Assembly (NCBI GenBank): GCA_002762985.1
Contig: PCXZ01000034.1
Span: forward strand, 8,431 to 72,430
Source of the DNA: Candidatus Woesearchaeota archaeon CG10_big_fil_rev_8_21_14_0_10_44_13
Lineage (GTDB): Archaea; Nanobdellota; Nanobdellia; Woesearchaeales; UBA12501
Length of the DNA stretch: 64,000 bases
Reading direction: 5' to 3'
Shown here: piece after piece, positions 7,389 through 30,277 of the stretch
How the letters are laid out: every line of letters starts with the position of its first letter
Numbering within the stretch: the stretch's first letter is position 1
Program-made: the position numbers and the translations under genes
The notes under the pieces: generated by a model
Databases searched by the model: none
What the model was told of the DNA's origin: nothing
The model's input: only the letters and a program-made list of their open reading frames with translations

Positions 7389-7443
7389 ATGTTACGTTTA
7401 GGTGTAACATTAACTATATAAATGTTACGTTTTTGTGTAACAT
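7389..7443. promoter_or_regulatory. two copies of the palindrome ATGTTAC-N8-GTAACAT flanking a TATA box (ctatataaa), abutting the ATPase start codon
   Basis: Half-sites lie at 7389-7395/7404-7410 and 7422-7428/7437-7443. On the minus strand each copy reads ATGTTACAC..., the same 9-mer that starts the putative antitoxin gene at 5848. Confidence 0.5.
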
Positions 7444-9057: not shown

Positions 9058-9066
9058 ATCAAGACC

Positions 9067-10077: not shown

Positions 10078-10088
10078 TTTATATGCCC

Positions 10089-11162: not shown

Positions 11163-11166
11163 TCGA

Positions 11167-12105
11167 TCAGCCTGAAAAGTTCAATTTTTGTCCTAACCCC
11201 TTAGACCCAATTGATTTTAATAGATAAAAAAATGATTTGAATCTCGAATTATTATTTTCTTGACTATTTATCATCTTAAATGATGCTGATATAATTAAAT
11301 AAAAAAATAAAATAATTAACCATACAAAGTATAATAACAATAAGAATAGGAATTTAAAAGATAAATGTTTCTTTAAGAAAATGTATAGGCTATTATTAAA
11401 ATTATATATGACGAATGGGGAAAGGGAATGTTTTATTGTTCCCCCCCATTTATGCAATATCTTTACATTATCAGCCCTCTTTGTTTTAAAGCCTTTGAGC
11501 CTCGCTCTTTTCCCATAATCAAAATCGTCAAAATAAAAGAGTCTTTCATCAAAATAACCAATTTCTTTTGCTTTATTATTATCAATCATCATTGCACACC
11601 CATCAACCATAGAATTCCATTTCGCCAGTTTTAAGGAATTTATGATTTTTAATAACCAAAAGCTCTCAAAGATTTTTTTATCTTGGTTATCCAGTAAATA
11701 TGAAGTTGGAAAGACTATTGCTGTGCTTTTATCATTATTAAAATAGTTTAAAATAAGGTGTAACATATTTCTATCAGTTATTATGGTATCCACATTCAAG
11801 AAAAAGGTATAATCAAACCCTTTGTTTATTGAATATTTCAACCCGTTATTATTTGCTTTTTGTAACCCTCTATTTTTTTTATTTTTCATAACTATCAGGC
11901 CATATCCCTTTGCGTAATCTAAAGTTTTATCCGAAGAAGCATTATCAATCAATAAAACTTTATAATTATTATACTCTAATTTAAATAAAGAAGATAAACA
12001 ACTTTTTATATACTTTTCACTATCCCAGCTTACAATTACAAATAAGATTTTTGGGTCATAACTATGTTTTTTTATTTTAAATGTCATTTTAGCCATCAAT
12101 ACCAC
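11167..12105 (-). CDS. family 2 glycosyltransferase
   Basis: N-terminal GT-A fold signatures (VIVSWDSEKY, LLIDNASSD, DxD-like NVDTI) and a C-terminal TM helix. It overlaps the upstream B12-rSAM gene by 10 nt. Confidence 0.7.
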   Translation of the reverse strand: MVLMAKMTFKIKKHSYDPKILFVIVSWDSEKYIKSCLSSLFKLEYNNYKVLLIDNASSDKTLDYAKGYGLIVMKNKKNRGLQKANNNGLKYSINKGFDYTFFLNVDTIITDRNMLHLILNYFNNDKSTAIVFPTSYLLDNQDKKIFESFWLLKIINSLKLAKWNSMVDGCAMMIDNNKAKEIGYFDERLFYFDDFDYGKRARLKGFKTKRADNVKILHKWGGTIKHSLSPFVIYNFNNSLYIFLKKHLSFKFLFLLLLYFVWLIILFFYLIISASFKMINSQENNNSRFKSFFYLLKSIGSKGLGQKLNFSG

Positions 12106-13616
12106 CCCGGCTTCGTGTTGTAATTGACCTTCCTTCCAAGCAAAGATTCGCTCAGCATCCCCCTGATGAACCTGAAAGACATCTTGGCCTTGTGCCCTGA
12201 CATCGAGCTGACGGCATTCTTCCTCCTTGAAGAACCGAGATTCAACCCTGCAAACTGCTCTTTCCTTGTCCTTATCCTAAGCTCATTGAGCATCATGTAA
12301 AACATCAATTGATTCCTTGACAGGTATTTCGACCTTGCGACAGGATTTATGAAATTATAGTACTTGAAATCCTTTATCTCTATAAGGTTTTTCTTCTCAA
12401 GCTCATCAAAATACCTTGTGCCTGGGTTCGGCGTCAAAGGCAATGGAACGCCGGTGTCAAAAGGTATCCCATTCAGCAGATCATAGAACCTTTTCAATGA
12501 CTGCCTTGTCTCATTAGGCAGCCCGTAAAGATATGTCGCTACAGAATAGACCTCAGGATATCTCCTGACTATCTCGAAAGCCTTTTTTATCGTGTCATAT
12601 GAATAGCCTTCCTTGTCAAGATACCTCAGGTCATCATTGTCTGTCCTCTCCACACCTATCATCACCTGCTTCAATCCGGCTTTGACCTGTTTCCCAAAAA
12701 TGCCTTTCTGCTCATCCCTGACTATGAAATCAGCCCTGAGCCATACTGAATGATCAATGTCCAGGCCGGTCTTTATCATCTCTTCAGCGAATTCCCTGTT
12801 CCATCTCGGATTCACGTTCCATGTGGGGTCAACCCAGCAGAAGGTCTTCCTGTTGAATTTCTCATGTAAATATGCAACCTCCTCAACTGTCCTTTTTACG
12901 GATTTGGTCCTGTAATGGGGCCTAACTTTCCCTGTTTTCATATCGAGCTGGCCCATCTGCTTCCATAGTATGCAGAAGTTACAGCTGCATGTGCAGCCCC
13001 TGCTGTGTTCAACAGCTACAAAATTCCTATGGTTCCTGCTCTTGCCGCCATAAGCGCCCATATCCAAAAGATCATATGCTGGCATAGGCAGGCTGTCAAG
13101 ATTTTTTATCAGGGGCCTTAACGATGTTTCAATCACTTTCCCTTTATCCTTGTATGCGATGCCATTTATCCTGCTCAAATCCTGCTTCGACCTGTCTTTT
13201 TTCAGTTCCCTGACAAGCTCAAGAAGTGTCTCTTCGCCCTCAAACCTCACAACAAAATCTATCTGGTGGTTATTGAGGGAATCGTTGGCCATGTATGTGA
13301 AATAAGTCCCTCCGGCGATCACAATAAGCTCTGGAAACATTGATCTGGCGATATTGACAAGCTTAAAAGCCTCGTTCACAGAGACAGTCTCTTCGCCAAT
13401 ACAAAGTACATCCGGCTTCTCCCTTTTCAATGCTTCTGGGACGCTTTTCCAGCCGATCTTCAGGGCAGGAAAGTCTATTATGCCAATTTTTATATCATCA
13501 ATATTCTCCCTGAGAACCGCGGCCATTGATGCGAAAGCCAGGGGCTGCCAAAAAGAGCTGTTTTCAGAATGGAACGGCCACATATACCTGGGCGGCCTGA
13601 CAAATAGTATCTTCAT
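12096..13616 (-). CDS. B12-binding (class B) radical SAM enzyme
   Basis: The N-terminal Rossmann-like cobalamin-binding domain (KILFVRPP...VLCIGEETVS...IAGG) is followed by the radical SAM core with CxxxCxxC (CTCSCNFC). 506 aa. Confidence 0.8.
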   Translation of the reverse strand: MKILFVRPPRYMWPFHSENSSFWQPLAFASMAAVLRENIDDIKIGIIDFPALKIGWKSVPEALKREKPDVLCIGEETVSVNEAFKLVNIARSMFPELIVIAGGTYFTYMANDSLNNHQIDFVVRFEGEETLLELVRELKKDRSKQDLSRINGIAYKDKGKVIETSLRPLIKNLDSLPMPAYDLLDMGAYGGKSRNHRNFVAVEHSRGCTCSCNFCILWKQMGQLDMKTGKVRPHYRTKSVKRTVEEVAYLHEKFNRKTFCWVDPTWNVNPRWNREFAEEMIKTGLDIDHSVWLRADFIVRDEQKGIFGKQVKAGLKQVMIGVERTDNDDLRYLDKEGYSYDTIKKAFEIVRRYPEVYSVATYLYGLPNETRQSLKRFYDLLNGIPFDTGVPLPLTPNPGTRYFDELEKKNLIEIKDFKYYNFINPVARSKYLSRNQLMFYMMLNELRIRTRKEQFAGLNLGSSRRKNAVSSMSGHKAKMSFRFIRGMLSESLLGRKVNYNTKPGWY

Positions 13617-13672: not shown

Positions 13673-14152
13673 TCATTTCCTCAATACCTTATTTATATTC
13701 TTAAAAAACGTGTATGCATTATCGAGCGATTCTTTTGCGGGTTCTTTGTTGGCTTGGGGCAGTTTCTGATAAGTAAACTCTCCCCTTTTCCCTTTCTCTC
13801 TTGAAAAAATACCTAAAAGCTCTTCTGCCCTTATTATCATTTTTTTGTAGATTTTCAACAATTCAACATCAAGTTTGCCTGTCTTGACCAGATACATCTC
13901 AAAAGCACCAATAGTCTTCCTGTGGACTTCAGGAGACCCCGTTTTTATATCCCCCTCCATCAATATCGCCTTGGCAGAGTTAAATATGCAATAATAAGAA
14001 TTGCTTATCACCAAGCTGTAAAAAGTAAAGTTTTTCTCCAGCTTAAACTGCTCTTTCTGCAGTTTTGGATTATTTGAGATGTCAAAAAGTATCTGGGCTG
14101 CTGCAAGCTCATTTTCTGCCCTTTGTAGATATAACTCCGCTTCATCTTTCAT
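13673..14152 (-). CDS. HEPN-domain protein (toxin-like partner of the upstream nucleotidyltransferase)
   Basis: The N-terminus YLQRAENELAAAQILFDIS is HEPN-like. The gene lies 1 nt downstream of an MNT-type nucleotidyltransferase gene on the same strand. Confidence 0.55.
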   Translation of the reverse strand: MKDEAELYLQRAENELAAAQILFDISNNPKLQKEQFKLEKNFTFYSLVISNSYYCIFNSAKAILMEGDIKTGSPEVHRKTIGAFEMYLVKTGKLDVELLKIYKKMIIRAEELLGIFSREKGKRGEFTYQKLPQANKEPAKESLDNAYTFFKNINKVLRK

Positions 14153-14153
14153 T

Positions 14154-14759
14154 CTATTTTCCTCTTATCAGATTAAGATATTCAATAAATCCATAATAGA
14201 CGATATTGTTTTTGTATATCTGTTTTCCCAGATTTTCATAATCAACTTTCAGCATTTCCAAGAATTCATCTCTTGTCATGATATGATAGTCTATACGCAG
14301 AATCTCTCTTCTTTTTATTGTCTCCAGATAAGGGGATACTTCTTTTTTTGTCTTTTCTGATTCGACAATGATTGCTATATCCAGATCTGATTTCTCTTTT
14401 GCCTTGCCCTTGACATGGCTGCCGAATACGATTAAAATGAAAAATTCAGTATACCCCGATACCTTTGCCTGTATGCGCTTTAGCACATCCACCGGCATCT
14501 TGTTTTTGCTTATCTCCAGCTCATTTACAAGGTTTAAGTAGGATAATGTCAGGTTATTGTCCAAATTCAAAAAATAGGTCGTCACATCCCCTGTCTCTTT
14601 TGTCTTTATCAGGCCCTGCTTTTTGAATTCCTTTAACGCAATCTGGATCAGGTTGTTTGATTTCTGCCTAAGCTGCTCTTTTATCTGCCTGAAGGTGAGC
14701 CCTATAGATATGTCTCTTTTAAAACAGCCTATGATTTTTATCTGCTCTTTTGTCAGCAT
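14154..14759 (-). CDS. minimal nucleotidyltransferase (MNT) protein with an N-terminal winged-helix region; HEPN/MNT pair
   Basis: FILIVFGSHVKGKAKEKSDLDIAIIV is the GS-x(n)-D-x-D polymerase-beta-type NTase motif. It is adjacent to the HEPN gene. Confidence 0.65.
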   Translation of the reverse strand: MLTKEQIKIIGCFKRDISIGLTFRQIKEQLRQKSNNLIQIALKEFKKQGLIKTKETGDVTTYFLNLDNNLTLSYLNLVNELEISKNKMPVDVLKRIQAKVSGYTEFFILIVFGSHVKGKAKEKSDLDIAIIVESEKTKKEVSPYLETIKRREILRIDYHIMTRDEFLEMLKVDYENLGKQIYKNNIVYYGFIEYLNLIRGK

Positions 14760-16435: not shown

Positions 16436-19400
16436 GTGGATTTAGATATAAGGGGCTTTTGCCCTGGGAAGAGCAAGAAAGCTCAGCTTGCAGCTTTCAT
16501 CATAATAGGGATTCTCGTGCTGGCCATGGCCGGTGCCATACTCTATTTAGTCACTTCTGCGAAAAAGACAGAGGCAGAGCTGATTGTCGAGAAAGGCATG
16601 GAGGTGAGCCTTGACGAGACGAAGATAAGGGAATACATTACCGCGTGCATACAGAAAGAAGGCAGGGGCCTGGTCGACAAGATAGGGCTGCAGGGCGGAA
16701 CACTGAACTTGGACCAGTTCAGGTATTATTTCAATATGAAATATAATTATCATTGTTATGCCCAAGATGGTTTCGTCTGTGTTAACAGGCTTGTGACAAG
16801 GAATTCCATGGCCCAGGAGCTAAATGCAGCATTGAAGAACAGCCTCAAGAAATGCGTGAATTTCGAGAATTTCAGGAAACAGGGATATGATGTGAAAGAG
16901 CAGGACATGGATGTCAAGACAATTGTAGGGGTGGATGATGTTGATTTTGAGGTGATATATCCCATAACAATCTCCAAGGACAACAATGAGGTCATCCTGA
17001 AAGATTTCAGCGAAAAAGTGGATTCAAGGCTCGGCTTGATGTATGACCTGGCTGTAAAAATAGTCTACCATCACTCTATGGGCGGGGAATTTGACGAGGA
17101 CAGATGGATGCTTGAACATGGCCAGATAAGCATCTCCAAACACAAGCCCTATCCTGACATCATCTATTCGCTGAGCATCAGGGATGCTGCAACCAAAAAA
17201 GAGGAATCCTTCAATTTCGCAATCAAGGGCAGATACTCAATCTATGAGATAGGGCAGCCCACAAAAACCCTTGTAAGCAAAGGATATTGCAGGACAAAGG
17301 ACAATAACTGCTATGTCAATGTAGATCAGGGAGACTGCGCAAAATCATTAGGAGAATGGAGCAATGCCCCTTTCCAGGACGCCCAATGCAGAGGCATGGG
17401 CACCATGCCAGAGCCGGAATGCAAAGGCGATGAATGCAAGAATTGCGGGAAAAGGGAGAACGGCGAATCATGGTGCGAATATGAAGGCATTGTGAGCCCC
17501 GGCTTCTCATTGGTCGGGTCGAGGCATTACAAGGGAAGCTGCATAAACGGCAAGATCTATTACACAGAATGCAGGGATTACCGTGAGGAGATATGCCTGG
17601 AGAACACAGACATAGATGTGCCTAAGGCAGTATGCAGGCCTAACAGATGGCAGGACTGCGCAGAGCAGGGGAATGAGGAGGATTGCATGGACAATTCTGC
17701 AAGGGACTGCTGGTGGTCTGGCTGGCTTGAACTCAACAGGCAGGGCAAGTGCCTGCCTTACATCCCCCCTGGATTTGCGCATTGGCAGCAGAACGGCCAG
17801 GAAGTTTGCGCCATGGCGAATGAGCAGTATGACTGCGGCTATTATACCTGCGGCAAATCATGGGTCGATTCGAGCGCAATATACTGCTACAATATGGGTG
17901 ACTGCGGGAATTACAGGAACACAGAAGATGAGATAACAAAACAGGGATTCTTCAATTTCGACAGCACGCCTTCAGATTATGTCTACCTGACAGATGATCA
18001 GCTGAAAACAGAGATGAAGCCAAAGCTTAAGATGGAAGCGGCGTATGCCCCTGTGCTTGACGGAAAAGAGTATGAAAACCCCCATGGAACAATAAACGAA
18101 TTGATCAATAATGAAGTGAGGTATTTTGATGAGGTTTCAAACTGGAGATTCGAGGATTTCAGGACTAATTACCTGCTTACTGGAAAGATTTACATCCATG
18201 TCCTGCAGACAGCATTGTGCATGCCGTGGCAGGCGCCATACAAAGGCGATGACTGCAAGGAATGCGGCAGCCTGAACAGGCCCTGCACAGAATACAAATG
18301 CAGGAGTTTGGGGCAGACATGCACTTATGAGGAAGTCAATGGAATAGGCTTCTGCTATGATTATTCTGAGAAGGATGATATCCCTCCTAAGATTTTCTTT
18401 GATGGTGTTGTGTTCGGTGATGTGAAGATAGAGAGGGATGTTTTCGGAAAAACAGTTGGTTACAAGTTCAGCAAGCCGCTTGAGCCGAACACAATTGTGG
18501 TATTCTCGATAAATGCGACAGAACCTGTGAAATGCAAAGTAACGTCATTGCCGCAGCCTGAATTCGACCAGATACCCCTTCCAGCGCCCGGCACATTCCA
18601 GGATTATTACACTTTTGTTGATATTGTGCCTAAGGCCCCTGATTTCAGGATAGGCCTGATGAAGTCTTTAGGGGTGAATAACTTCCTTGAGCTCGGCACA
18701 TTTGAAACATACGACGATAAGTTCAAAAAGATAATCTATGATGCCAGGAAATTCGTCAAGGAATTCAAAGGGGGCATGAACAAGGAATTTGCAGAGCAGA
18801 ACATACAGAGGCTTGAGAATATGTGGAATGATGACATCGCACCCAACATAAAGAAAGCCTTTGAAAACCTGGGCGATACACTGAGGGATGTGGCAGTGCA
18901 GACAGAGCAGGGCAACAAGCTTGTTTTCTTCAAATGCATAGACAAGGCAGGGAATGAGAACACTGAAGACCTGTTCATAAAATACAGGATAGGGAAGGAT
19001 GAAAGCGCCCCTGTACTGATGGCTGCATTGCCTGTCAACAACACGAACATAAGCAGTTTTGGAAATCTTTCGCTCTATACGAATGAGCCTGCGAACTGCA
19101 GGTTTGCAGGAAGCGACATGCCTTATGACTCCATGCCCTTGAAGACAGAGACAGAATGCACTCTGCCTCTGATGATTGGAGCATTTAAGCTCTATGAATG
19201 CACACCAAGGGATATCAATGCTTCAAGCGACATAAGAACAAACATATATGTCAGGTGCAAGGATAATCCATTAAAAGTCGAAAGGTACATATTCAATCTC
19301 ACGAAAGGCGATGCCCTCATTCATCTTTTCCCTGAAAATGCCATGACAATAGACCTCAGGGAGAATGACAGGATAATAAACCTCACAATGGAGTTCGAAC

Positions 19401-19702
19401 AATACTTCACATTCCCCAAGGTGAAAGATATAATGGTGAATGCGGATGAGTATGAGATGATAATACAGTCCATAAGGGATGATATTGACTGCGGGTTCTC
19501 GGAAACGCCGGGATTGAGCGTCAGCCAGATGGTACCCATGGCCTGTGAAAAAGGCGGCCTTGAAGGCACATACCAGTGCAGGCATAAGGTCAATGTCCAG
19601 AATAACATGCTCTTTGAGATAGCATGCAGAGGCAGATTCCAGGAAGAGAAAAGGAACACAGCAAAAGAGAGCGCAGTATTGAGCTATCTAAACCTTCCTT
19701 GA
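16436..19702 (+). CDS. giant Cys-rich secreted protein, paralog A (1088 aa), with a class-III/type-IV-pilin-like signal peptide
   Basis: N-terminal ...KSKKAQLAAFIIIGILVLAMAG. Paralogous to 26540..30277 through shared blocks (RHYKGSCINGKIYYTECRDYREEICLE, VCRPNRWQDC, CTEYKCRSLGQTCTYEEVNGIGFCY, CIDKAGNENTEDL). It has more than 60 cysteines. Confidence 0.7.
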   Translation: MDLDIRGFCPGKSKKAQLAAFIIIGILVLAMAGAILYLVTSAKKTEAELIVEKGMEVSLDETKIREYITACIQKEGRGLVDKIGLQGGTLNLDQFRYYFNMKYNYHCYAQDGFVCVNRLVTRNSMAQELNAALKNSLKKCVNFENFRKQGYDVKEQDMDVKTIVGVDDVDFEVIYPITISKDNNEVILKDFSEKVDSRLGLMYDLAVKIVYHHSMGGEFDEDRWMLEHGQISISKHKPYPDIIYSLSIRDAATKKEESFNFAIKGRYSIYEIGQPTKTLVSKGYCRTKDNNCYVNVDQGDCAKSLGEWSNAPFQDAQCRGMGTMPEPECKGDECKNCGKRENGESWCEYEGIVSPGFSLVGSRHYKGSCINGKIYYTECRDYREEICLENTDIDVPKAVCRPNRWQDCAEQGNEEDCMDNSARDCWWSGWLELNRQGKCLPYIPPGFAHWQQNGQEVCAMANEQYDCGYYTCGKSWVDSSAIYCYNMGDCGNYRNTEDEITKQGFFNFDSTPSDYVYLTDDQLKTEMKPKLKMEAAYAPVLDGKEYENPHGTINELINNEVRYFDEVSNWRFEDFRTNYLLTGKIYIHVLQTALCMPWQAPYKGDDCKECGSLNRPCTEYKCRSLGQTCTYEEVNGIGFCYDYSEKDDIPPKIFFDGVVFGDVKIERDVFGKTVGYKFSKPLEPNTIVVFSINATEPVKCKVTSLPQPEFDQIPLPAPGTFQDYYTFVDIVPKAPDFRIGLMKSLGVNNFLELGTFETYDDKFKKIIYDARKFVKEFKGGMNKEFAEQNIQRLENMWNDDIAPNIKKAFENLGDTLRDVAVQTEQGNKLVFFKCIDKAGNENTEDLFIKYRIGKDESAPVLMAALPVNNTNISSFGNLSLYTNEPANCRFAGSDMPYDSMPLKTETECTLPLMIGAFKLYECTPRDINASSDIRTNIYVRCKDNPLKVERYIFNLTKGDALIHLFPENAMTIDLRENDRIINLTMEFEQYFTFPKVKDIMVNADEYEMIIQSIRDDIDCGFSETPGLSVSQMVPMACEKGGLEGTYQCRHKVNVQNNMLFEIACRGRFQEEKRNTAKESAVLSYLNLP

Positions 19703-20422
19703 TTTCACAAGATAGATTGCCGATGAAACTGCAAATACCACTATGCTTACCCACTGTGAAAATGTAAGGCCCAGATAGTTGAATGGGTATTCCCTCAAGA
19801 ACTCTATCATGAATCTCCCTGCTGAGTAGACCATAAGGTATTTCAGGAATATCTGGCCGAAGAATCTCCTATTGTGCCATCCGGAATAAAGATGGGCGAA
19901 CAGAACGATGTTGAAAAATGAGAGGTAAAGGCCGACAGGATGTCTTGCAGTGCCGTCAGGAAGCTTGACTGCCCACCATACGCCTGTTATCCTGCCCAAT
20001 GCGTCATTCACAAAGAAGCACCCTATCCTGGCGAAGAAGATCTCCAATGGGATCGCCATGCCCCAGAAATCCAGATGCTTCCAGAAATTATAACGGTTTA
20101 TTCTTGTGTAGACATACCCCAATAAGATTCCGCCGAACAACCCCCCATAAAAGACAAAGCCCCTGTTGAATATGCCTAAGATGCCGGCGCTGCTGCATGC
20201 TTCGTAAGGCCCGATATAGAACAGCAGTTTAGAGCCCAGCCATGCCCCTGCAAAGACCCACAATGATTCAATTATCATTATCTTCGGATGGATCTTCTGC
20301 CTGCGGCCCATGCGGATCAGGAACAGCACACCTACCGCCATGCCTATGAAAGCGAAAAGAGAATGGGGGGGCGTCTTTATCAGCCAGAATTCCCACATCT
20401 CCTTCGGGATTAAAGGGATCAT
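19688..20422 (-). CDS. prolipoprotein diacylglyceryl transferase (Lgt) family protein, paralog 2
   Basis: FARIGCFFVNDALG...RHPVGLY aligns with the Lgt G-R-x-G-N-F-x-N and HPxQLY regions. The start is taken at the ATG (MIPLIPKEMW), which matches the paralogs' MIPYEI/MIEYEM starts. Confidence 0.75.
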   Translation of the reverse strand: MIPLIPKEMWEFWLIKTPPHSLFAFIGMAVGVLFLIRMGRRQKIHPKIMIIESLWVFAGAWLGSKLLFYIGPYEACSSAGILGIFNRGFVFYGGLFGGILLGYVYTRINRYNFWKHLDFWGMAIPLEIFFARIGCFFVNDALGRITGVWWAVKLPDGTARHPVGLYLSFFNIVLFAHLYSGWHNRRFFGQIFLKYLMVYSAGRFMIEFLREYPFNYLGLTFSQWVSIVVFAVSSAIYLVKSRKV

Positions 20423-20577
20423 TTTAGCCTCCAAAAACCAATAGTGAACATGATGGCGCCTATGGCTGCAATTGACAGGGAGAATGACTTGATTGAGCTT
20501 ATGTGCAGGAAGCCGAAATCGATCAAAAAACCTCCTGCTATGACAAGAGCGAGATTAAGCGTGTTTTTCCCCATCAT
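20419..20577 (-). CDS. 52-aa two-helix membrane peptide (MMGKNTLNLALVIAGGFLIDFGFLHISSIKSFSLSIAAIGAIMFTIGFWRLK), translationally coupled to lgt paralog 2
   Basis: Not in the ORF track because it is under 60 aa. I translated the reverse strand by hand. The TGA stop overlaps the Lgt ATG (ATGA), and the sequence is hydrophobic with Gly-zipper-like GxxxG/AxxxG. Confidence 0.3.
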   Translation of the reverse strand: MMGKNTLNLALVIAGGFLIDFGFLHISSIKSFSLSIAAIGAIMFTIGFWRLK

Positions 20578-20626
20578 CCAAAGAAGTTGCCCGATTTATA
20601 TAAAATAATCGTTTTTCAGGAAGCGG

Positions 20627-21199
20627 TCAGGATGGGTTTACGGTTGTTGCAACGCCATCTTGGATCGGTTGCGTGTTGCTGGAGCTGCCAGAGGTCTGCT
20701 GTACGTTCTCTTTCGCACCCCCCCCAGCGCAAGACGAGCAGCTGTCGCAGTTGATGACGCCCAGCATGTATAGGAGAAGCAGGACAAGGATGATTATTAT
20801 GACGGCGATTATGACCCAGAATAACAATGATCCTACAAAACCTGCTGTTGACGCTACAGCAGCAGCATCTAATGAGCCTTTGACTGCTACTCCTGTTGAT
20901 CCTAAAGTACCGCTCGAAGTTGATGAAACTGCGGAAAGAGATGAGGTAATTGAAGTGATTGATTGGCCAGCAGTCAAAGTTGTAAGGGTAGCAGTTTCAA
21001 CAAACGCTCTCACTCCTCTAGCCAATAGGGGGATTATAATAGCAGCGCATATTATCGCCAGCATTGTCATTTTCCTGACATTAAACTTTCTTTTCGGAGG
21101 CTCTTTCTTCAGCTTCCTTTCAGAGCTCTTGTGCCTGAAGACAGTCTTCTTTGAGAATAAACCAGGCTTAACGTCTCTTTTGAAGGATATTACGTGCAT
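20627..21199 (-). CDS. S/T-rich two-pass membrane protein ending in a C-terminal Cys motif (NCDSCSSCAGGG)
   Basis: Codon usage (AGG/AGA/AAG) matches the known genes better than the overlapping + strand ORF. A signal-anchor (alternative start MTMLAIICAAIIIPLL at 21070) is followed by a Ser/Thr low-complexity segment and a second TM, then the CDSCSSC tail. It is the middle gene of the rSAM - this protein - peptide - lgt minus-strand string. Confidence 0.35.
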   Translation of the reverse strand: MHVISFKRDVKPGLFSKKTVFRHKSSERKLKKEPPKRKFNVRKMTMLAIICAAIIIPLLARGVRAFVETATLTTLTAGQSITSITSSLSAVSSTSSGTLGSTGVAVKGSLDAAAVASTAGFVGSLLFWVIIAVIIIILVLLLLYMLGVINCDSCSSCAGGGAKENVQQTSGSSSNTQPIQDGVATTVNPS

Positions 21200-21229
21200 G
21201 AGATTGTTATAGCAAGGGAGTATTTAAAT

Positions 21230-22204
21230 TTATTGTATAATCTTCTCCTTCTTCAGGTCAGAGACGCAGTCATGGCAGAACGAAACGCCGTACTTCCTTA
21301 TGCTCTTCTGCCTGCCGTCATAAGTGGCTTTGTCTATCCTCTCGCTCAACTTTGTCCTGTAGTCTGTCTCTAAAAAATGCTTCAGGTCGCCATGCTTCTT
21401 GTATCTGTAATAGCTTAGCTGAGGGATATTGCAGCAGACCCCGAAGCTTCCGTCAGGGAAAACTATGACCCCTCTGTCCAGGACAGAGCATACTTCCTCG
21501 CTGTGGCTGCCTAACCCTAAGAAAATCTGCTTCCCCTGCTCCCTGTACAGCTGAGAGATCCTGTAGGCCATATTGAAATAAAAGTTCATGTCTTCCTCTT
21601 TTGACAGGGTTTCCCTTTCTGTGGCTCCTCCCTGGGGGATTGCCCTGTACAAGGTCAATTTATCTGCGCCTAATTTAGTGAAGATGAAATCTGCTGTCCT
21701 CGGGATATCAGCAAGATTCTCTTTTGTCACGAGAGTTATGAAGCTGGCTCGTGAGGGTCTTGTCATTGCCCATGACCTTAATGCCCCCTCATAGGAGCCT
21801 TTGCCCCTCAATCTGTCATTCTTTTCCTGATCATAAGAATCGAGCGATATGGTGAGAGCCAGCTTCCTTATCCTGGCTAATCTTAGGAAATCGTTTGTTT
21901 TGAGATTGACGCCATTGGTCACAATGTCCATCTCAAATCCCAATGCAGCAGCATATTCGATTATGTCAAAGAATTTGGGATGGGTTGTAGGCTCGCCTCC
22001 TGAAAAGCTGACTGACTTGTACCTGAGCTCTTTCGCCTCTTTCAGCATCTCTTTGGCTGTCTCAAGATCCATTGAGCCTTTCTTCCCCTTGTACAGGCAA
22101 TGCTTGCAGTCCAGGTTGCAGTCGTATGTAAGGAAGATAGAGAGCCACCTGTCAAATCTTGCCCTGGATATTATATCCTCAAGAATCCCCTTCGAAAAAA
22201 GCAT
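21230..22204 (-). CDS. radical SAM enzyme with a SPASM/twitch C-terminal domain
   Basis: CNLDCKHC (CxxxCxxC), SFSGGEP, and C-terminal ...GVCCNIP...FCHDCVSD cysteines. Confidence 0.75.
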   Translation of the reverse strand: MLFSKGILEDIISRARFDRWLSIFLTYDCNLDCKHCLYKGKKGSMDLETAKEMLKEAKELRYKSVSFSGGEPTTHPKFFDIIEYAAALGFEMDIVTNGVNLKTNDFLRLARIRKLALTISLDSYDQEKNDRLRGKGSYEGALRSWAMTRPSRASFITLVTKENLADIPRTADFIFTKLGADKLTLYRAIPQGGATERETLSKEEDMNFYFNMAYRISQLYREQGKQIFLGLGSHSEEVCSVLDRGVIVFPDGSFGVCCNIPQLSYYRYKKHGDLKHFLETDYRTKLSERIDKATYDGRQKSIRKYGVSFCHDCVSDLKKEKIIQ

Positions 22205-22287
22205 TCAGGGCATTAAACGAACATTGTTTATATATTTTTTTGTTGAAAATTGATAATATTAATAAAACAGGGAGGATATCCCAGGAT

Positions 22288-23244
22288 ATGATCCCTTACG
22301 AAATCCACAAGATACTCTTCAAGATAGGGGACAGATTCGCGATCTTCACATGGGGTGTGATGTTCGCAATCGCCTGGATCTTCGCAGGCTATTTCATATA
22401 TATGAATGCGAAGAGCAATAAGGATGTGGATATTAACAAGGCGATGCAGTTCCTGCTTGCAACTTTTGTCGGCGTCCTCTTCGGCTCAAGGCTTTTCCAT
22501 TACTTCGGCCCATGGGGCTATGGAAGCTTCTATGAACGGATAAAACTCATGTTCTCGCCGAAAGGGGGCTGGGTCGCTTACGGAGGGATAATCTTCGGGT
22601 TGGTCTTTTCATATGCGTACTCAAAGATGAAGAAGATAAATTTCCTGAGATACTGCGATATCCTTGCACCGGCGATACCTTTGGGCCTTTTCATGGGCAG
22701 ATTCGGCTGTTTCCTTGCGGGCTGCTGTTTCGGCGCAGAAACCAATGTCCTGTGGGCGATCGAAAGATTCGGGACAACCATCCATCCATCGCAGCTTTAT
22801 GCTGCATTTGCAGAGCTCATCGTCTTCGTTATTATGCTGGAATTGGCCAGGAGGCACAAGGCAGAGAGGAGATATGACGGATATCTGGTCTTCTCGGCGA
22901 TATTGCTCTACTCCATAGCAAGATTCATGACTGAATTCTTCAGGGGGGATTATGGGATTAATGTCTATCATTTCGGATTCACGTTCTCCCAGCTCATATC
23001 GATCATATTGGTCATCTTTTTCGGGACGATGATGCTGCTGAATCAGGGGAAGAGCAGAGGGGCTGTCCCGAAGATAGACAAAGACATGAAATTGAGCTAT
23101 CTGCTCGTCTCCGGCGGAGGCATGCTGAGCATAATCTCGCTGCTGTTCGTCAACATGGACATCGAGATCATGATTGCGCCTTTCGCCTTCGGATTATTGA
23201 TCCTGTTCAGGGGGCTGATGGCCTACACAAGCAGCCATAATTGA
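22288..23244 (+). CDS. prolipoprotein diacylglyceryl transferase (Lgt) family protein, paralog 3
   Basis: Collinear with E. coli Lgt. [13 protein letters not shown] matches [37 protein letters not shown] matches [42 protein letters not shown] matches [24 protein letters not shown] matches IIVEFFRQPD. The start is taken at ATG 22288; the track's TTG start at 22159 reads across a TATA box. Confidence 0.85.
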   Translation: [318 protein letters not shown]

Positions 23245-23313: not shown

Positions 23314-24303
23314 ATGATAGAATATGAGATGCTGAAATATGTCACAATAGGCGGATTAAAGATAGGCTTCTGGTTCACAACACATTATCTCATCGCATGG
23401 CCATTCGCAGCATATTATATCATAAAAGAAACATTAAGGAAAAGAAATTTCGACAAGGGCCTTGATCTTAACAGGATGCTGCAGATGTTCCTCTTGGCTT
23501 TTGTAGGTTCTTTCGTTGGATCAAGGATCTTTGCATTCTATGGTCCCTGGGGCGGAAGTTGTGCAAGCGGGGGGTTTGTAGAAAGGTTCATGCAGATGAT
23601 AAGCCTTGAACAGAAAGGCTGGGTTGCGATAGGGGGGATCATAGGTGGGATCGTCTTCACGTTTGTCTACTCAAAGATCACCAAGTTGAAGTATATGAGA
23701 TATGCGGATATCCTTGCGCCTGCAATAGCTCTCGGATTTTTCATCGCAAGACTGGGATGTTATATCGCCGGCTGCTGTTTCGGCTCCCAGACAGATGTCC
23801 CTTGGGCGATAATAAAAGACAATGTGCCAATACATCCAACACAGCTCTATAACTCCCTGGTAGACCTTGCAATTTTTGTTGTTCTGGTCTGCCTTAGCGA
23901 AAGGAAAGAAAAGAAGAACAGGCAGGATGGCTATGTCTTATCATCGTTCGTGTTCATGTATGCGGTGGGCAGGTTCACGACAGAATTTTTCAGGGGGGAT
24001 TATGACCCTTCAAATTATTTCTTCGGCCTTACGACAACGCAGATAATATGCATTGTATTCTTCCTGATTTCAGCCACATTGATCATAATAAACTCATTGA
24101 AAGAATCCCCGAAAAAGAGGGTAAAGACAGGCTTCCGCATAAGGCCGAAGACCTATGCATTATTGGTTTCAGGAGGCATAATCGCAAACATAGGCGCTTA
24201 TATCATAACCCCTCTGCCTTATCTTGCATTGATAGTCATACCATCGGGCCTTGGAATCTTCTTTTTCGGCCTTACGACAATCTTCTCAAAACCAAAAAAT
24301 TAA
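23314..24303 (+). CDS. prolipoprotein diacylglyceryl transferase (Lgt) family protein, paralog 4
   Basis: [54 protein letters not shown] and [11 protein letters not shown] are the same signature blocks as in paralog 3. Confidence 0.85.
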   Translation: [329 protein letters not shown]

Positions 24304-24321: not shown

Positions 24322-25377
24322 TTGCAGATGCAGATGGCAAAAAAGAAGGCTGAAAAAGAAGCGAAAGCGAATAGGATAAGCAAGACAACGATAATTCTTT
24401 ATGCTGCTGTCATATTGATATCAGTCATTTTTCTCAGCGTGATGAGCGCAGGCCAGTCAAGCGGGGGCGGAGGTGGATGCTGTGACTGCAGCGAATGCAG
24501 GTGCATATGCTGCGAGAGCTGCCTGAATTGCGACAAGGGATGCAGGAAAGATTGCGGTTGTATGTCTGAACAATATGCAGGTGTGGTTGTAGTTGATCCT
24601 TATACAAATGCTGCAATGAATGGCAATGATTATTACTGCAAACGCGGAGGACCGCCGCCAGTGCCTCCTGAGCCGCAATGCGATTGTTATGAAACGCAGC
24701 CATGCCCTCTCATAGAAGGGGTATGCAAGCTTGCAAAGGACAAATGCGTGTATGGGACTGCCGGCGTTGCATACACTTGCGAATGGGAAGGATGCGATGC
24801 TGAAGTTTACGGCCCTCTCTACCAGTTCGACGAGGACAAGTGCGACGGAAATGACAATGACTGCGACGGAGACAAGGACGAAGGATGCGATGAGGACAAG
24901 GATGGTTTCTGCAACAATGATCTCGAGTGCAGCTCTGGAAAATACAACTGCGGAGATTCGGAACCGGGAGTCTCTGTAGGGACAGATGAATGCACAGACT
25001 GCGATGACAGCAATCCTTTGGTTCATCCAAGGGCATCCGAAGTCTGCGACGGAATTGATAATGACTGCGATTATGAGGTTGATGAGGGATGCGAATGCAG
25101 CCCGCTAGGAGCAGAGAAATTATGCGAGAACCAGAAAGGGGTCTGCGCAGGCATGAAAAGGATATGCAAATCATGCACAGACATAGAATGTGATGCTGGC
25201 CAGCACAGCAAATGGATAGGGTGCTCTTACAGCTCATCAAAAGTGGAAGGCTATAAGAAGCCTGAAGGCGATTCATGGTACTGTGCAGACAATCTTGACA
25301 ATGATTGCGACGGAAAGACAGACTGCGAAGACTCCGGATGCTTCCCTTACTGCCAGACGCCTATACCAACTTCTTAA
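24322..25377 (+). CDS. membrane-anchored Cys-rich protein with three 'DNDCDG'-type putative metal-binding repeats
   Basis: A TM helix is followed by GGGGGCCDCSECRCICCESCLNCDKGC. The repeats are KCDGNDNDCDGDKDEGCDEDKDGFC, VCDGIDNDCDYEVDEGCEC and YCADNLDNDCDGKTDCEDSGC. Confidence 0.6.
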   Translation: MQMQMAKKKAEKEAKANRISKTTIILYAAVILISVIFLSVMSAGQSSGGGGGCCDCSECRCICCESCLNCDKGCRKDCGCMSEQYAGVVVVDPYTNAAMNGNDYYCKRGGPPPVPPEPQCDCYETQPCPLIEGVCKLAKDKCVYGTAGVAYTCEWEGCDAEVYGPLYQFDEDKCDGNDNDCDGDKDEGCDEDKDGFCNNDLECSSGKYNCGDSEPGVSVGTDECTDCDDSNPLVHPRASEVCDGIDNDCDYEVDEGCECSPLGAEKLCENQKGVCAGMKRICKSCTDIECDAGQHSKWIGCSYSSSKVEGYKKPEGDSWYCADNLDNDCDGKTDCEDSGCFPYCQTPIPTS

Positions 25378-26462: not shown

Positions 26463-26539
26463 ACAGGTACATGATTATAGATAATCATATCGCAACCGGA
26501 ATATCACGATCAAAACACAATCAAAAAAGAGCAGATAAG

Positions 26540-29500
26540 ATGAACGGAAAAAAGAGGTGCAAGAAAGGCCAGATGGCTGCATTTGTCCTTATAGGGCTTA
26601 TCCTGCTGATAGGCTCTGCTGCGCTCACTTATGTTCTTTATGTTGCAAAAAAAGCCCCAAGCGATCAGTATTTCCTCGAGCAGCTGCCGGAATCCCTTGA
26701 CAAGACTTCCCTTGATACATTGATGAGATCGTGCATAAAAAAAGTCTCTGATCCTGAGCTTATCAGGATCGCCAAGTACGGCGGGACCATAAGTCCGAAA
26801 GTTAATGAATACCGGACCTATAACAAGACAAGATACAGGTATCTTTGCGACCAGAAGCCTGGCTATACTGAATGCGTGAACAAGATACTCACAAGGGAAA
26901 GCATGCAGGAAGAGCTTCAGGACAAGATAACTGTCGAGGTCGCAGCATGCATGAGTCCGGCGCTGAAATTCTATGAGGACAGGGGATATGAGATAAAATC
27001 AAGCCAGCCTAGCACAAAGGTGATAATAGCCCCTGATGATGTCAACGTCATAGTCAATTATCCTCTTGTCGTCTCAAAAGATGCCACAAAGATAAACACG
27101 ATGGATTATTCTGTGCAGTTCGATTATCCTCTCGGCAAATTGTATGACCTTGCCATGGAGATACTGAACAGCGAGAACAGCGCGGGATATTTCAACCAGG
27201 AAGGATGGATGTTCAACCACAGCATAGAGGTGTTGATACAGAAGCACAGGCCTTATCCTGATGTGACCTATAAGCTGAGCAAGTATGACTGGGAGAAGAA
27301 AGAGCATTATGTCTTCAATTTCGCGCTGCAGGGATATGACAGGCTGCCTGAGCTTGCTGGCCTCGGGTCTTTAGGGTCCAGCGGGCAGATGATAGCATCT
27401 CCTGCTGCTGCCAGATCAAATGCTTATGACCAGAACATGGGATGCTGCAACAACAAGAAAGACGGGAATTGTTTTGAGAATGCAGACAAGAGCTCATGCA
27501 TGAACAACGGCCTTGAATTCAGGACAGGGACATGCGCGCAGAGCGGATTCACGTGCAAGCCCATATCAGAGGATAAGTTCGACAACAGGACAGGGCTCTG
27601 CTATGGCAGGAGATGCAATGCGTGCATGAACGGCACATATGAGTATGGGGACAATGTGAACGATCCTTCCACTTACAGCGGCCCTGCAAAGATGAACGGC
27701 GAGTCCTGGTGCTCGTATGAAGGGCCGAGCGGCCAGGGCCTTGATGCAGTGGGCTCAAGGCATTACAAGCAGATCTGCGTAGACGGGTCAATGCTCGTAG
27801 AGGAATGCGGCGATTACAGGACAGACATCTGTGTTGAACAGGCAGAGACCATAAACGGAAGGCAGATGACAAGGGCTGTCTGCAGGCCGAACAGGTGGCA
27901 GGACTGCCATCTCTTCGGGAGCAACCAGGCAGAATGCACAGACACAGGCAAGAGAGACTGCTATTGGAATGTATTCCAGGATAATTTCCTATTGGGGAAA
28001 CCTCGCGATCAGAGCGAACCAGGCACAGTCACTTCATATGAGGAGAGGCATTGCGCGCCTCAAGTCCCGCCCGGATTGAGATTCTGGAATACTTTGGAAG
28101 GGATGCAGGTCTGCGGATGGGCGAACAATTATTATGAATGCGCTGCTCCGGGATGCTTCCAGGAATGGACCGAGTTCGATGCCATCTACTGCGCAATGCA
28201 GGGAGACTGCGGCATCTACAGGAATTACCTCGGAAAGCTGCCTGAGCTCTCATTGAACAACCTATTCCCTGGAGCAGGGCAATTGCCCGGCGTAGGCACA
28301 AGCTCTATGGGCGGAGGATTCGTGAGCGCGCCGAACCTCATCAATAACCAGATATACGAGCTAGTCCTCCCCAATGCGCAGAATTTCGCGCTTAAGACGT
28401 ACCAAAAGGCGGGAAAGCTGCCATCATATCCTAAAGAGTGGTACCCGAAAACAGTCACTCCTGACATGTTCATACATAACTCCCCGAATGATTATTCCAT
28501 GCTTGGCATCATGAGCTTCTTCCAGAGGTTCGTCGATTGGGGCATGGACAAGCTCAACAATATCGAGGATGACATATGGGACCTCATAGTCCATGGTGAA
28601 TCCATGGAATGGACGGCTCTTGGCGTGAGCATGTGCAATGTCTGGACTCCGAGCACTTCAGCGATCGACTGCGAGAAATGCAACGGCAATCCTTACAGGC
28701 CATGCACGGAATACAAATGCAGGAGCCTTGGCATGTACTGCAATTATGAGGAGATAGACGGAGTGGGCAAATGCTCTTCATATGAGACGTCCACTATAGG
28801 AAAGCCTGTTGTGCAGTTCGACGGCCAGATAACGCCTGGCTACACTACCAAAGGATCGACATTGGCTTCTTCAGATACTGCTTATGTGGGAAAAGAGATA
28901 ATCGAAGCATTGAAGACAGATTATACATTCCAGATAAAGACGAACAGGGAAACCCAATGCATGCTCACTGTAGTGCCCGGAGCATCGTTCGGAATGAACC
29001 CTCCTTTCCCAGGGACAGCGACAGACTACAGCTTCAGGACAAAGCATAATCTCACAATACCTTATACGACTGCTGACGGGCTCTCTGTGATGCTATTGCC
29101 TCTCCAGCTGATGAGCATGATCAGTTTCAATCCTGACCAGATCTGGGCGATATTCAATAACATGGCGAACAGGATAATAACTTATATGGAAGACCTGACT
29201 GATGACTGCAATGACTGCAATGACTGGGATCCGAGCACTGGTTGCGGTAACATCGGCCTTATGGCCCTGAGCAATGATGACTGCGATGAGATGGAAGACA
29301 AGACTGACCAGATCAAGAGCATGTTCTCGCAGATAACTGATTTCTGGCAGAATACAGTAAAGCCGGAAGTGGAGAAGTGGCTGAACACGGCGCAGAAGAA
29401 TGCCATCGATGAGGTATTGAATTATGCCGTTGCCCAGCACAAATACCATGCGTTCGTGAAATGCAGGGACAGGGGGGGGAATGAGAATGAAGTAGACCTT

Positions 29501-30277
29501 GATTTCATAAGGTTCAAGATCAGCCCCAATCCATTGGCTGCTGCACAGGTCCCGGACGGGCCTCCTATTGTAAGGGCGATCGAGCCTCAGAACTGGACAG
29601 AGCAGAGCCCTGATGAAGCAGGCAGGAAAGAGGTCTATGTTTACCTTAATCAACTGTCTGAATGCGCTTATGGCACATCAGACCAGGAATTCATTTACAT
29701 GAATAACAAGTTCCAGTGCCCGAAATCAACATATTACGGCGGCCTTGCAGGAGGATATGTCTGCAATTCAAGCAGACCTTTCGATGAATTGAAGAACCCT
29801 GGCGCGCCGATATACATCAAATGCATAGACCATCCTGAACATTATGAGACATTCAGCTTCAGGCTTGAGCAGGGGACAGAATACGCAGGACCGCAGAGAT
29901 CCGAATGGATAAAGCCAATCACAGAAGGCGAACCAGGCACAGTCATAATAAAGGACCCTAAAACGATAAACCAGAGCATGGAGAAGATAACCGTACCGAG
30001 CATGAGCGTGAAATTCTTCATTGAATTCAAGAGGCAGGAGAACGACAATGAGAAGGCTCTTGAATGCAGATATGCGCCTACGCAGGCAGGGGCCTCTTCA
30101 GGCACGACATTCGTCGATCCCAAGAGCGGAGGCACGCAATGCGACAACTGCACAGCTCTGCTGACTGCGACAGGCACGGACTATTATGTATGGTGCCATT
30201 TCAAGACAGAGCAGAGGAACGCAGGCCAGGCATACCAGTATGTGCTGCAGGAAGCCGCTGCTGAAGCCACGACATGA
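26540..30277 (+). CDS. giant Cys-rich secreted protein, paralog B (~1245 aa from ATG 26540), with a class-III/type-IV-pilin-like signal peptide
   Basis: N-terminal MNGKKRCKKGQMAAFVLIGLILLIGSAALTY. It shares the same conserved blocks as paralog A (RHYKQICVDG...CGDYRTDICVEQ, VCRPNRWQDC, CTEYKCRSLGMYCNYEEIDGVGKCS, CRDRGGNENEVDL). Confidence 0.7.
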   Translation: MNGKKRCKKGQMAAFVLIGLILLIGSAALTYVLYVAKKAPSDQYFLEQLPESLDKTSLDTLMRSCIKKVSDPELIRIAKYGGTISPKVNEYRTYNKTRYRYLCDQKPGYTECVNKILTRESMQEELQDKITVEVAACMSPALKFYEDRGYEIKSSQPSTKVIIAPDDVNVIVNYPLVVSKDATKINTMDYSVQFDYPLGKLYDLAMEILNSENSAGYFNQEGWMFNHSIEVLIQKHRPYPDVTYKLSKYDWEKKEHYVFNFALQGYDRLPELAGLGSLGSSGQMIASPAAARSNAYDQNMGCCNNKKDGNCFENADKSSCMNNGLEFRTGTCAQSGFTCKPISEDKFDNRTGLCYGRRCNACMNGTYEYGDNVNDPSTYSGPAKMNGESWCSYEGPSGQGLDAVGSRHYKQICVDGSMLVEECGDYRTDICVEQAETINGRQMTRAVCRPNRWQDCHLFGSNQAECTDTGKRDCYWNVFQDNFLLGKPRDQSEPGTVTSYEERHCAPQVPPGLRFWNTLEGMQVCGWANNYYECAAPGCFQEWTEFDAIYCAMQGDCGIYRNYLGKLPELSLNNLFPGAGQLPGVGTSSMGGGFVSAPNLINNQIYELVLPNAQNFALKTYQKAGKLPSYPKEWYPKTVTPDMFIHNSPNDYSMLGIMSFFQRFVDWGMDKLNNIEDDIWDLIVHGESMEWTALGVSMCNVWTPSTSAIDCEKCNGNPYRPCTEYKCRSLGMYCNYEEIDGVGKCSSYETSTIGKPVVQFDGQITPGYTTKGSTLASSDTAYVGKEIIEALKTDYTFQIKTNRETQCMLTVVPGASFGMNPPFPGTATDYSFRTKHNLTIPYTTADGLSVMLLPLQLMSMISFNPDQIWAIFNNMANRIITYMEDLTDDCNDCNDWDPSTGCGNIGLMALSNDDCDEMEDKTDQIKSMFSQITDFWQNTVKPEVEKWLNTAQKNAIDEVLNYAVAQHKYHAFVKCRDRGGNENEVDLDFIRFKISPNPLAAAQVPDGPPIVRAIEPQNWTEQSPDEAGRKEVYVYLNQLSECAYGTSDQEFIYMNNKFQCPKSTYYGGLAGGYVCNSSRPFDELKNPGAPIYIKCIDHPEHYETFSFRLEQGTEYAGPQRSEWIKPITEGEPGTVIIKDPKTINQSMEKITVPSMSVKFFIEFKRQENDNEKALECRYAPTQAGASSGTTFVDPKSGGTQCDNCTALLTATGTDYYVWCHFKTEQRNAGQAYQYVLQEAAAEATT

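Follow-up and report, generated by a model that had tools for sequence, protein, structure and literature searches.

What does a radical SAM enzyme do beside a small membrane protein that carries a cysteine cluster at its membrane boundary, and how are the two related to an Lgt-type transferase encoded next to them? The question is raised by four co-oriented genes (19688-22204, minus strand) in a 64,000-nucleotide stretch of DNA, hereafter the window, from a contig of a metagenome-assembled genome that belongs to Candidatus Woesearchaeota (DPANN) and comes from groundwater of the Crystal Geyser type. We tentatively favour the answer that the radical SAM and the membrane protein, here called the Cys-tail protein, may be an enzyme-client pair acting at the Cys cluster, and that the other two genes, an open reading frame (ORF) of 52 amino acids (aa) and an Lgt homolog (LgtA), would form a separate Lgt-type unit in the same envelope island. 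The features of the locus are as follows.

21230-22204, minus strand: radical SAM, 324 aa (GenBank COV19_07160, 'hypothetical protein', 100% identical)
21266-21490, minus strand: twitch-like auxiliary-cluster region of the radical SAM (C239-X12-G-X4-C257, C258, C310-X2-C313)
20627-21199, minus strand: Cys-tail membrane protein, 190 aa, absent from GenBank
20729-20749, minus strand: juxtamembrane Cys cluster, C151-D-S-C154-S-S-C157, with C154 and C157 invariant in seven of seven family members
20419-20577, minus strand: membrane protein of 52 (or 51) aa with two helices, encoded by the first gene of the Lgt unit
19688-20422, minus strand: LgtA, 244 aa (PF01790, 128.5 bits); the ORF extends to 20434
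20790-21212, plus strand: antisense ORF COV19_07155 (PIN85967.1, 140 aa), exact GenBank match, judged spurious
22226-22241, minus strand: A-rich/TATA-like box, putative promoter, about 22 nt 5' of the radical SAM start codon
21220-21231, minus strand: TATA-like box AAATTTAAATAC of the Cys-tail gene, about 20 nt before its ATG and in overlap with the radical SAM stop codon
20594-20605, minus strand: TATA-like box TTTTATATAAAT of the 52-aa ORF, some 16-19 nt before it

The four minus-strand ORFs were verified at these coordinates. A sequence-only reading of the same DNA had described them as co-oriented with gaps of at most 50 nt and one ATGA overlap, and the spacing was confirmed: 30 nt lie between the radical SAM and Cys-tail genes and 49 nt between the Cys-tail gene and the 52-aa ORF, and the 52-aa ORF overlaps the Lgt gene in ATGA. 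The contig was confirmed as archaeal by an archaeal-type ValRS (PRK13208, 1072 bits, above cutoff); archaeal-type SecD and PorA models also matched in the window, below cutoff. The same locus is present on JGI contig Ga0066639_10000073.

The Cys-tail gene follows the radical SAM gene in all four loci with visible downstream sequence. The gap is 30 nt in the window, 42 nt in a related locus L172 and 39 nt in L004, and in L010 the two genes are separated by a 1.3-kb insertion. They stay side by side at radical SAM identities from 100% to as low as 46%, with other synteny rearranged, and an adjacency that outlasts rearrangement argues for a functional link. Both families are tiny. The radical SAM family has eight homologs at 46-100% identity, and among the 5.8 billion clusters searched everything beyond these is at most 33% identical. 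Scanning 185,579 genomes and the JGI metagenomes with the family alignment returned only generic radical SAMs at no more than 38% identity, mostly of the mycofactocin type, and the same scans gave no further syntenic loci. A phmmer search of 1.84 billion representatives found five Cys-tail clusters including the protein's own, the four others being P0017 to P0020. Synteny added the copies in L010 and in the divergent L004; the L172 copy is P0017. Word-indexed searches with the Cys-tail protein and the 52-aa ORF returned the query proteins only.

In GenBank the Cys-tail and 52-aa proteins are lacking, because COV19_07155 is an antisense ORF inside the real minus-strand gene. The sequence-only reading had left room for the plus-strand ORF at 20673-21212 to be the real gene. 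All four loci have the minus-strand frame uninterrupted. The antisense frame, by contrast, is broken in L010 (139 of 219 codons) and in L004 (85 of 282), and we rejected the plus-strand candidate; COV19_07155 has no family match. The gene callers of JGI, ENA and Logan called both the 190-aa and the 51/52-aa genes, so that the earlier description of the 52-aa ORF as unannotated holds for GenBank and not for these three. The open frame in four loci, the gene calls, the homologs of coherent architecture and a conserved, well-placed TATA-like box together support the minus-strand gene as real. Third-codon-position analysis cannot separate the strands here, since the wobble positions coincide.

The Cys-tail protein consists, from its N-terminus, of a basic N-region (16 K/R in 43 aa in the window protein), a hydrophobic segment ending in V-R-A, an S/T-rich region, a long transmembrane (TM) segment, the Cys cluster and a Q/S/T-rich tail. 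Ser and Thr make up 22% of the protein and 46% of the part between its two clear hydrophobic segments, and NCDSCSSCAGGG (Cys151, 154 and 157) stands directly after the last of these. CxxCxxC occurs in 2 of 50 window proteins, with about 0.13 occurrences expected window-wide at 1.9% Cys. Conservation of the Cys tail in homologous loci had been named beforehand as a test, and the cluster was found directly after the last TM in all seven family members. According to the seven-sequence alignment, a basic N-motif is conserved (K11, P12, F15, F21, K24, K36, R37, F39 and R42). The first hydrophobic segment has an invariant P57 and ends at an invariant V-x-A-type site, A65, which is a possible signal-peptidase site, and in the last TM W128 and G147 are conserved. 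The region between the hydrophobic segments, S/T- or A/G-rich, varies freely across members. The sequences that follow the last TM are these.

Window: VINCDSCSSCAGGG
L010: VINCSSCMSGCGGQ
P0017 (L172): VISCDSCSTCGGQ
P0018: FIACGGCGLCDQQ
P0019: GDCNCGSCAGCDACGG
P0020: VIDCSSCMSGCGGQ
L004: FSSCGDGCGDGCGDGCGSCGD

P0020 (340 aa) also carries about 120 unrelated N-terminal residues, which may come from a read-through gene call or a fusion.

The neighbouring enzyme belongs to the radical SAM superfamily, with a PF04055 match of 81.3 bits (gathering score 29.5) and a CX3CX2C motif at C29/C33/C36. It had been assigned a SPASM/twitch domain. SPASM is a seven-Cys motif, CX9-15GX4C-gap-CX2CX5CX3C-gap-C, with two auxiliary clusters; twitch is a truncated SPASM with one auxiliary cluster, having Cys before and after a beta-hairpin and a Cys after helix alpha2' (PMC6231123). 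In the window enzyme the first half of the SPASM motif is present and the CX2CX5CX3C half is reduced to C310-X2-C313, which falls short of SPASM. Pfam SPASM (PF13186) gave no match on the full-length protein, and on the isolated C-terminus it gave 13.2-14.7 bits against a cutoff of 21.5, aligned to profile positions 1-66 of 67. The C-terminal third has 5-6 Cys conserved in the family alignment. On this pattern, CX12GX4C followed by a terminal CX2C, the C-terminus appears twitch-like, with one predicted auxiliary cluster, and of the earlier assignment the twitch part is plausible while the full SPASM did not hold. Residue 234 is His in the window enzyme and Cys in all six full-length relatives (GSHSEEVC versus GSCxDETC), and may be a changed ligand of the auxiliary cluster.

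In the AlphaFold model the partial TIM-barrel core has a predicted local distance difference test (pLDDT) score of 70-95, and residues 234-264 and 282-324, modelled with only 8 sequences, are below 50. The best PDB matches of the core were SuiB, SkfB, BlsE and CteB, followed by viperins, and the tetraether synthase GDGT-MAS was also among its fold matches. There is no N-terminal RRE; the radical SAM motif begins at residue 29, which leaves no room for the domain, and no PqqD-like partner gene was seen among the neighbours. Classification against subfamily models, proposed earlier as the check, placed the enzyme in the superfamily and in none of the NCBIfam equivalogs, all of which were far below cutoff. 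The best was the mycofactocin maturase (90.7 bits against 265), and the W-cofactor maturase model reached 83 bits against 380, aligned over nearly the full length of the protein. PHROGs gave only generic radical SAM matches. Paralogy with the other window radical SAMs was rejected, as they share core similarity only (24-27% identity). Distant DPANN radical SAMs (L067, L071, L091, L155 and L162) were set aside too, as they lie in a different cassette, which has no Cys-tail protein or Lgt. That cassette (e.g. L071 4682-7406) encodes a 429-aa radical SAM, a 297-aa radical SAM and a 187-aa CKDCNTCC protein in mutually overlapping genes.

Like the SPASM/twitch maturases SkfB, CteB/SCIFF, PapB, QhpD and anSME, the window enzyme combines a radical SAM core with a C-terminal Cys-rich domain bearing a CX9-15GX4C hairpin, its gene lies directly beside that of a Cys-rich candidate client, and SuiB, SkfB and CteB are its best fold matches. 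QhpD and anSME act on whole proteins as clients, not only on short peptides. Unlike these maturases, it has one auxiliary-cluster motif, a sub-threshold SPASM, no RRE and no equivalog reached, and its candidate client is a membrane protein of 190-282 aa with 3-5 clustered Cys rather than a soluble precursor of 40-60 aa. A SCIFF precursor is soluble, about 45 aa long and has six Cys; the Cys-tail protein differs in all three respects. TIGR04133 (rSAM_w_lipo) offers another likeness, being a radical SAM/SPASM family that is presumably paired with a lipoprotein family and so with a lipid-anchored or membrane protein; the window radical SAM, at 52 bits against a cutoff of 425, is not a member. By mechanism class the pair would be akin to a SPASM/twitch maturase with a Cys-rich client, and since the SPASM, RRE, SCIFF and all equivalog tests failed it is a member of no described family.

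The remaining two genes stand apart from this pair. The sequence-only reading had taken all four genes as a single operon, which now looks improbable. A-rich/TATA-like boxes stand some 20-30 nt before the ATGs of three genes. For the radical SAM gene, equivalent boxes are present in six loci; the Cys-tail gene has TTTAAATA or TTTATATA at equal distance in the window, L010, L172 and L004; and the box of the 52-aa ORF is kept in L010 as TTTTATATAC. No GGAGG was found before the radical SAM gene, the Cys-tail gene or the 52-aa ORF, as expected for leaderless archaeal transcripts. L010 has the same four genes in the same order, with Cas4-like and Fic genes splitting the radical SAM from the Cys-tail gene and a PDC-S01-type ATPase between the Cys-tail gene and the 51-aa ORF. 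Conserved TATA-like boxes at three of the four genes, together with the L010 insertions between units, indicate that the set is probably three co-oriented transcription units.

Relatives have an insertion hot spot immediately 3' of the radical SAM gene (L010 1189-4565; L011 2102-3862; L173 1142-1611). The inserts include a Cas4-like nuclease, Fic, a PDC-S01-type AAA_14/DUF4143 ATPase and small toxin-antitoxin (TA)-like genes, the last lying 3' of the radical SAM in L011 and L173. The window has an ATPase of the same AAA_14/DUF4143 family at 6108-7388 and a HEPN/NTase pair at 13673-14759.

The 52-aa ORF belongs with LgtA. In L010 a 51-aa homolog, 50% identical, lies directly before an LgtA ortholog that is 53% identical over its visible 74 aa. 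Between the window and L010, the small genes can be aligned over 51 codons with no gap; of the 25 residues that are identical, 15 are encoded by different, synonymous codons, and the differences number 22, 13 and 32 at the first, second and third codon positions. Judged from this comparison with L010, the one relative in which the region is visible, the ORF is a real gene under purifying selection, so the conservation asked of it was borne out. The stop codon of the small gene and the start codon of Lgt overlap, as ATGA in the window and as TAATG in L010. In both loci the Lgt ATG is preceded by a GGAGG at a distance of 5-8 nt (5 nt in the window), and a TTTTATATA box stands before the small gene. 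The overlap, the conserved GGAGG and the box before the small gene indicate that the 52-aa ORF and LgtA form a bicistronic unit with coupled translation. The true LgtA start is most likely the ATG at 20422, as called by JGI. In L004 an LgtA-like gene lies on the opposite strand without the small ORF, which makes the small protein an Lgt accessory in one sub-lineage.

The proposal of a radical-SAM-modified peptide or protein tied to an Lgt-like transferase is therefore to be divided: the Cys-tail pairing and the Lgt nearby remain, the 52-aa peptide goes with Lgt, and on these gene arrangements it is unlikely to be a radical SAM substrate. The C-terminal 55 aa or so of two other window Lgt paralogs, LgtB and LgtC, form a two-TM hairpin with an L..GG..G..G pattern that resembles the 52-aa protein. 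BLASTP between the 52-aa protein and these extensions was not significant (shuffle z 0.9-4.65), and the LgtB and LgtC extensions compared with each other reached a shuffle z of only 3.3. The 52-aa protein and the extensions may, by their sequence pattern, be a fission/fusion pair.

Four Lgt paralogs, all exceeding the PF01790 gathering score of 24.9, lie in the window. LgtA is given above; the other three, and two further proteins that bear on the argument, are as follows.

22288-23244, plus strand: LgtB, 318 aa (PF01790, 156.7 bits), with the C-terminal two-TM extension
23314-24303, plus strand: LgtC, 329 aa (PF01790, 157.2 bits), with the C-terminal two-TM extension
7433-8320, plus strand: LgtD (PF01790, 76.5 bits)
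24328-25377, plus strand: 349-aa protein with a basic N-terminus, one TM, GGGGG, Cys cluster CCDCSECRCICCESC (CCDCSECRCICCESCLNCDKGCRKDCGC) and a MopE metal-binding motif
16436-19702, plus strand: Cys-rich protein of 1088 aa with a membrane anchor and no Pfam family; its gene converges on that of LgtA and overlaps it by 15 nt

The LgtB and radical SAM genes diverge from an intergenic region of 83 nt, and the LgtB ortholog in L011, 74% identical, is likewise divergent from the radical SAM. GenBank labels LgtA, LgtB and LgtC 'hypothetical protein'. Like E. coli Lgt (5azb), they belong to PF01790 and show the positive-loop pattern. The two arginines essential in E. coli, R143 and R239, are invariant in LgtA, LgtB, LgtC and the L004 Lgt, and D129, G154, H196 and R246 are also kept in the aligned copies. 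The LgtA model (pLDDT 73) had E. coli Lgt as its sole significant PDB match (E 1.2e-6, template modelling score 0.68). N146, G154, Y26, E151, E243 and H103 are reported to be important residues of Lgt as well. Among these, E243 is kept in the window paralogs, N146 is replaced by Cys in LgtA, LgtB and LgtC (in LgtD by Asp, aligned by eye), H103 by Tyr or Ile, and Y26 by Phe or Trp. Further differences from the E. coli enzyme are the archaeal ether-lipid host, the loss in LgtA, LgtB and LgtC of about 22 residues aligning to E. coli 158-179 or so, and NCBIfam lgt equivalog (TIGR00544) scores of 83.6, 106.6 and 99.7 bits for LgtA, LgtB and LgtC, all below 118.9. So too are the presence of four paralogs in 64 kb, one with a coupled 52-aa protein and two with a C-terminal hairpin, and the lack of a lipobox substrate near the window copies: strict and loose scans for a canonical lipobox ORF in the 64-kb window gave one spurious antisense ORF. 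By Pfam match, catalytic arginines and modelled fold, the window genes are genuine Lgt homologs with a predicted lipidation activity. They were probably acquired horizontally.

According to a 2025 study in Nature Communications, no homolog of Lgt or Lsp is known from archaea; it proposes AliA/AliB instead, AliA being only marginally similar to PF01790 (PMC12462473). The likeness to AliA/AliB of Haloferax lies in the proposed attachment of lipid to Cys of archaeal surface proteins, and AliA/AliB are reported in DPANN too (PMC12462473). In the literature we found no paper linking Lgt with Woesearchaeota.

From these results we infer a lineage-specific cell-envelope cluster of a small Woesearchaeota clade, made of three adjacent, separately promoted units. 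The first would be a cytoplasmic radical SAM with one twitch-type auxiliary Fe-S cluster and no RRE. The second would be its dedicated client, the Cys-tail protein, constrained in its basic N-motif, its last TM and its membrane-boundary CxxC(xxC). The enzyme would act on its client at the cytoplasmic face, in or close to the Cys cluster, the likeliest chemistry being a thioether-type crosslink or another Cys-directed modification, as in SPASM/twitch maturases. The third would be a bicistronic mRNA for a 52-aa two-helix membrane subunit and LgtA. LgtA would attach membrane lipid to Cys thiols of envelope proteins at the outer face, its targets possibly including membrane-proximal Cys clusters such as that of the Cys-tail protein. 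The reading of the first two units as enzyme and client is drawn from the conserved pairing, the tiny co-restricted families, the invariant C154/C157, the CX12GX4C with terminal CX2C, and the SuiB/SkfB/CteB folds. It is a possibility that we prefer to its rivals without regarding it as probable.

The side of the membrane on which the tail lies matters, because a radical SAM reaches the cytoplasmic side only, whereas Lgt acts on the outer face. Across the family, 13-18 Lys/Arg place the N-region in the cytoplasm, and by hydropathy two TMs with N-in/C-in is the only scheme that fits every Cys-tail member. In this arrangement the conserved basic N-motif and the Cys cluster would meet at the cytoplasmic face. 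A cytoplasmic face for the Cys tail is plausible on these predictions; of the two-pass protein with a cytoplasmic CDSCSSC tail proposed earlier, the two hydrophobic segments and the Cys cluster stand, and the side is less firm. Several observations weigh against our preferred reading. In five of six homologs the 25 residues after the last TM are acidic and contain no Lys/Arg, and five of six have an extra, borderline-hydrophobic A/G-rich segment. The L004 tail has an acidic linker followed by a 135-aa Cys-containing domain. Taken together, these three features are compatible with an outward Cys cluster, beyond a cytoplasmic radical SAM. The residues between the Cys are not conserved. The radical SAM has no RRE, and its modelled C-terminal domain is the part with pLDDT below 50. 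The twitch enzymes BtrN, BlsE and MoaA act on small molecules (PMC6231123), so that the domain does not imply a protein substrate. Finally, all loci come from one narrow clade of about seven genomes, and the evidence is adjacency.

The same features of the tail suggest that the Cys-tail protein might instead be a client of LgtA, its Cys cluster lying at the outer face and being lipidated by LgtA with the 52-aa subunit, while the radical SAM acts before export or on something else. The acidic Lys/Arg-free tail, the Cys-containing C-terminal domain of L004 and the possible third segment in five of six homologs would fit, and lipobox-like residues precede the first Cys in P0017 (V-I-S-C), P0018 (F-I-A-C) and L004 (F-S-S-C); against this, the -1 position is N or D in the window, L010 and P0020, which is not lipobox-like, and no canonical lipobox protein was found in the window. 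The 349-aa protein, the only other CxxCxxC protein of the window, has a dense Cys cluster just outside its single TM, on the outer side, and is encoded directly downstream of LgtC. An LgtA-type gene lies within a few genes of the pair in all three loci long enough to show it (window, L010 and L004). The active site of E. coli Lgt is oriented outward, and LgtA, whose positive loops follow the same topology, is expected to have an outward-facing active site as well. On the other hand, the window protein has no third hydrophobic segment, which makes an odd number of passes hard to draw, and the strictly adjacent radical SAM would be left unexplained. We regard lipidation of the Cys-tail protein by LgtA as rather unlikely.

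A substrate other than protein is also conceivable. The radical SAM would then act on a lipid or small molecule, the Cys-tail protein would be a membrane tether or a metal/Fe-S partner, and the region an envelope-lipid remodelling island with the Lgts as lipid transferases. The window holds four radical SAMs besides its four Lgt paralogs, and Lgt and radical SAM genes co-locate twice within the 64 kb, the second time at LgtD with a polyprenyl synthase nearby. Small-molecule substrates have precedent in BtrN, BlsE and MoaA (PMC6231123). GDGT-MAS is among the fold matches. CxxCxxC is a classic spacing for Fe-S or metal binding, but most family members have three Cys, too few for a cluster in a monomer. 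Nor does the enzyme show specific similarity to lipid-modifying radical SAMs, its NCBIfam scores being far below cutoff, and a close, conserved adjacency to one particular protein of the membrane whose Cys pair is invariant is rather what one would expect of an enzyme and its client. This, too, we hold to be somewhat improbable.

Alternatively, the genes might have no functional link and be neighbours only because the few carrier genomes are closely related. The single narrow clade, the foreign genes inserted between units without loss, the different orientation of Lgt in L004 and the apparent promoter of each unit would all be in keeping with mere neighbourhood. The window and L004 have nevertheless diverged (46% identity for the radical SAM, 36% over 1037 aa for the 1088-aa protein, whose L004 ortholog at 4482-7814 adjoins the radical SAM rather than LgtA) and are rearranged, yet the pair is still adjacent at 39 nt with an Lgt next door. 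We think mere neighbourhood quite unlikely.

An antiviral defence module of a viperin-like radical SAM with a membrane effector is very improbable and its viperin identity largely refuted. In its favour, PADLOC pVip models match the enzyme at 80 bits, the PDB sequence search is headed by viperin-like enzymes, and Cas4-like, PDC-S01, Fic and TA pairs are inserted around the locus in relatives. The pVip match, however, is confined to profile positions 4-116 of 257, the core common to radical SAMs, and an unrelated window radical SAM scores alike (72 bits). NCBIfam viperin NF038283 reaches 67 bits, its cutoff being 180. A Cys-rich auxiliary-cluster domain is absent from viperins, and PADLOC gave no match for the Cys-tail protein, the 52-aa protein or LgtA.

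The wider window is rich in large Cys-rich surface proteins and also encodes an ABC transporter and SecDF. The 1088-aa protein and a 1268-aa protein (26471-30277, plus strand) are giant Cys-rich paralogs with an N-terminal anchor and no Pfam family. A 311-aa ORF precedes the latter; the 311-aa protein has a partial match in L004 (29-41% identity). On the minus strand at 8329-13616, a low-GC cluster (0.30-0.33) encodes a methyltransferase, a radical SAM, a true-SPASM radical SAM, a GT2 and a BchE/HpnJ-like B12 radical SAM. Convergent with LgtD and followed by the HEPN/NTase pair and the polyprenyl synthase, the cluster may be a horizontally acquired cassette for lipid, glycan or peptide modification.

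For annotation, the locus shows that GenBank has a wrong-strand gene here and is without both small genes. For the Lgt family, four clear members in an archaeal contig, one of them confirmed by fold, are contrary to the statement published in 2025. Since DPANN are predicted to be lipoprotein-rich, it can be tested whether some of them use a bacterial-type enzyme with ether lipids. A bolder scheme, which we consider decidedly doubtful, is a yet undescribed archaeal maturation in which the twitch radical SAM would process the Cys cluster and an Lgt with a two-helix subunit, free or fused, would then lipidate it with ether lipids; if true, this would be the first case in Archaea of a lipidation route that depends on Lgt, and it would act on internal Cys clusters that are not lipoboxes. 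For the enzyme-client pair that we prefer, an integral-membrane client with an invariant Cys pair lies outside the usual search pattern for peptides made on the ribosome and modified after translation (short precursor, RRE and SPASM). If confirmed, it would widen where such radical SAM chemistry is sought.

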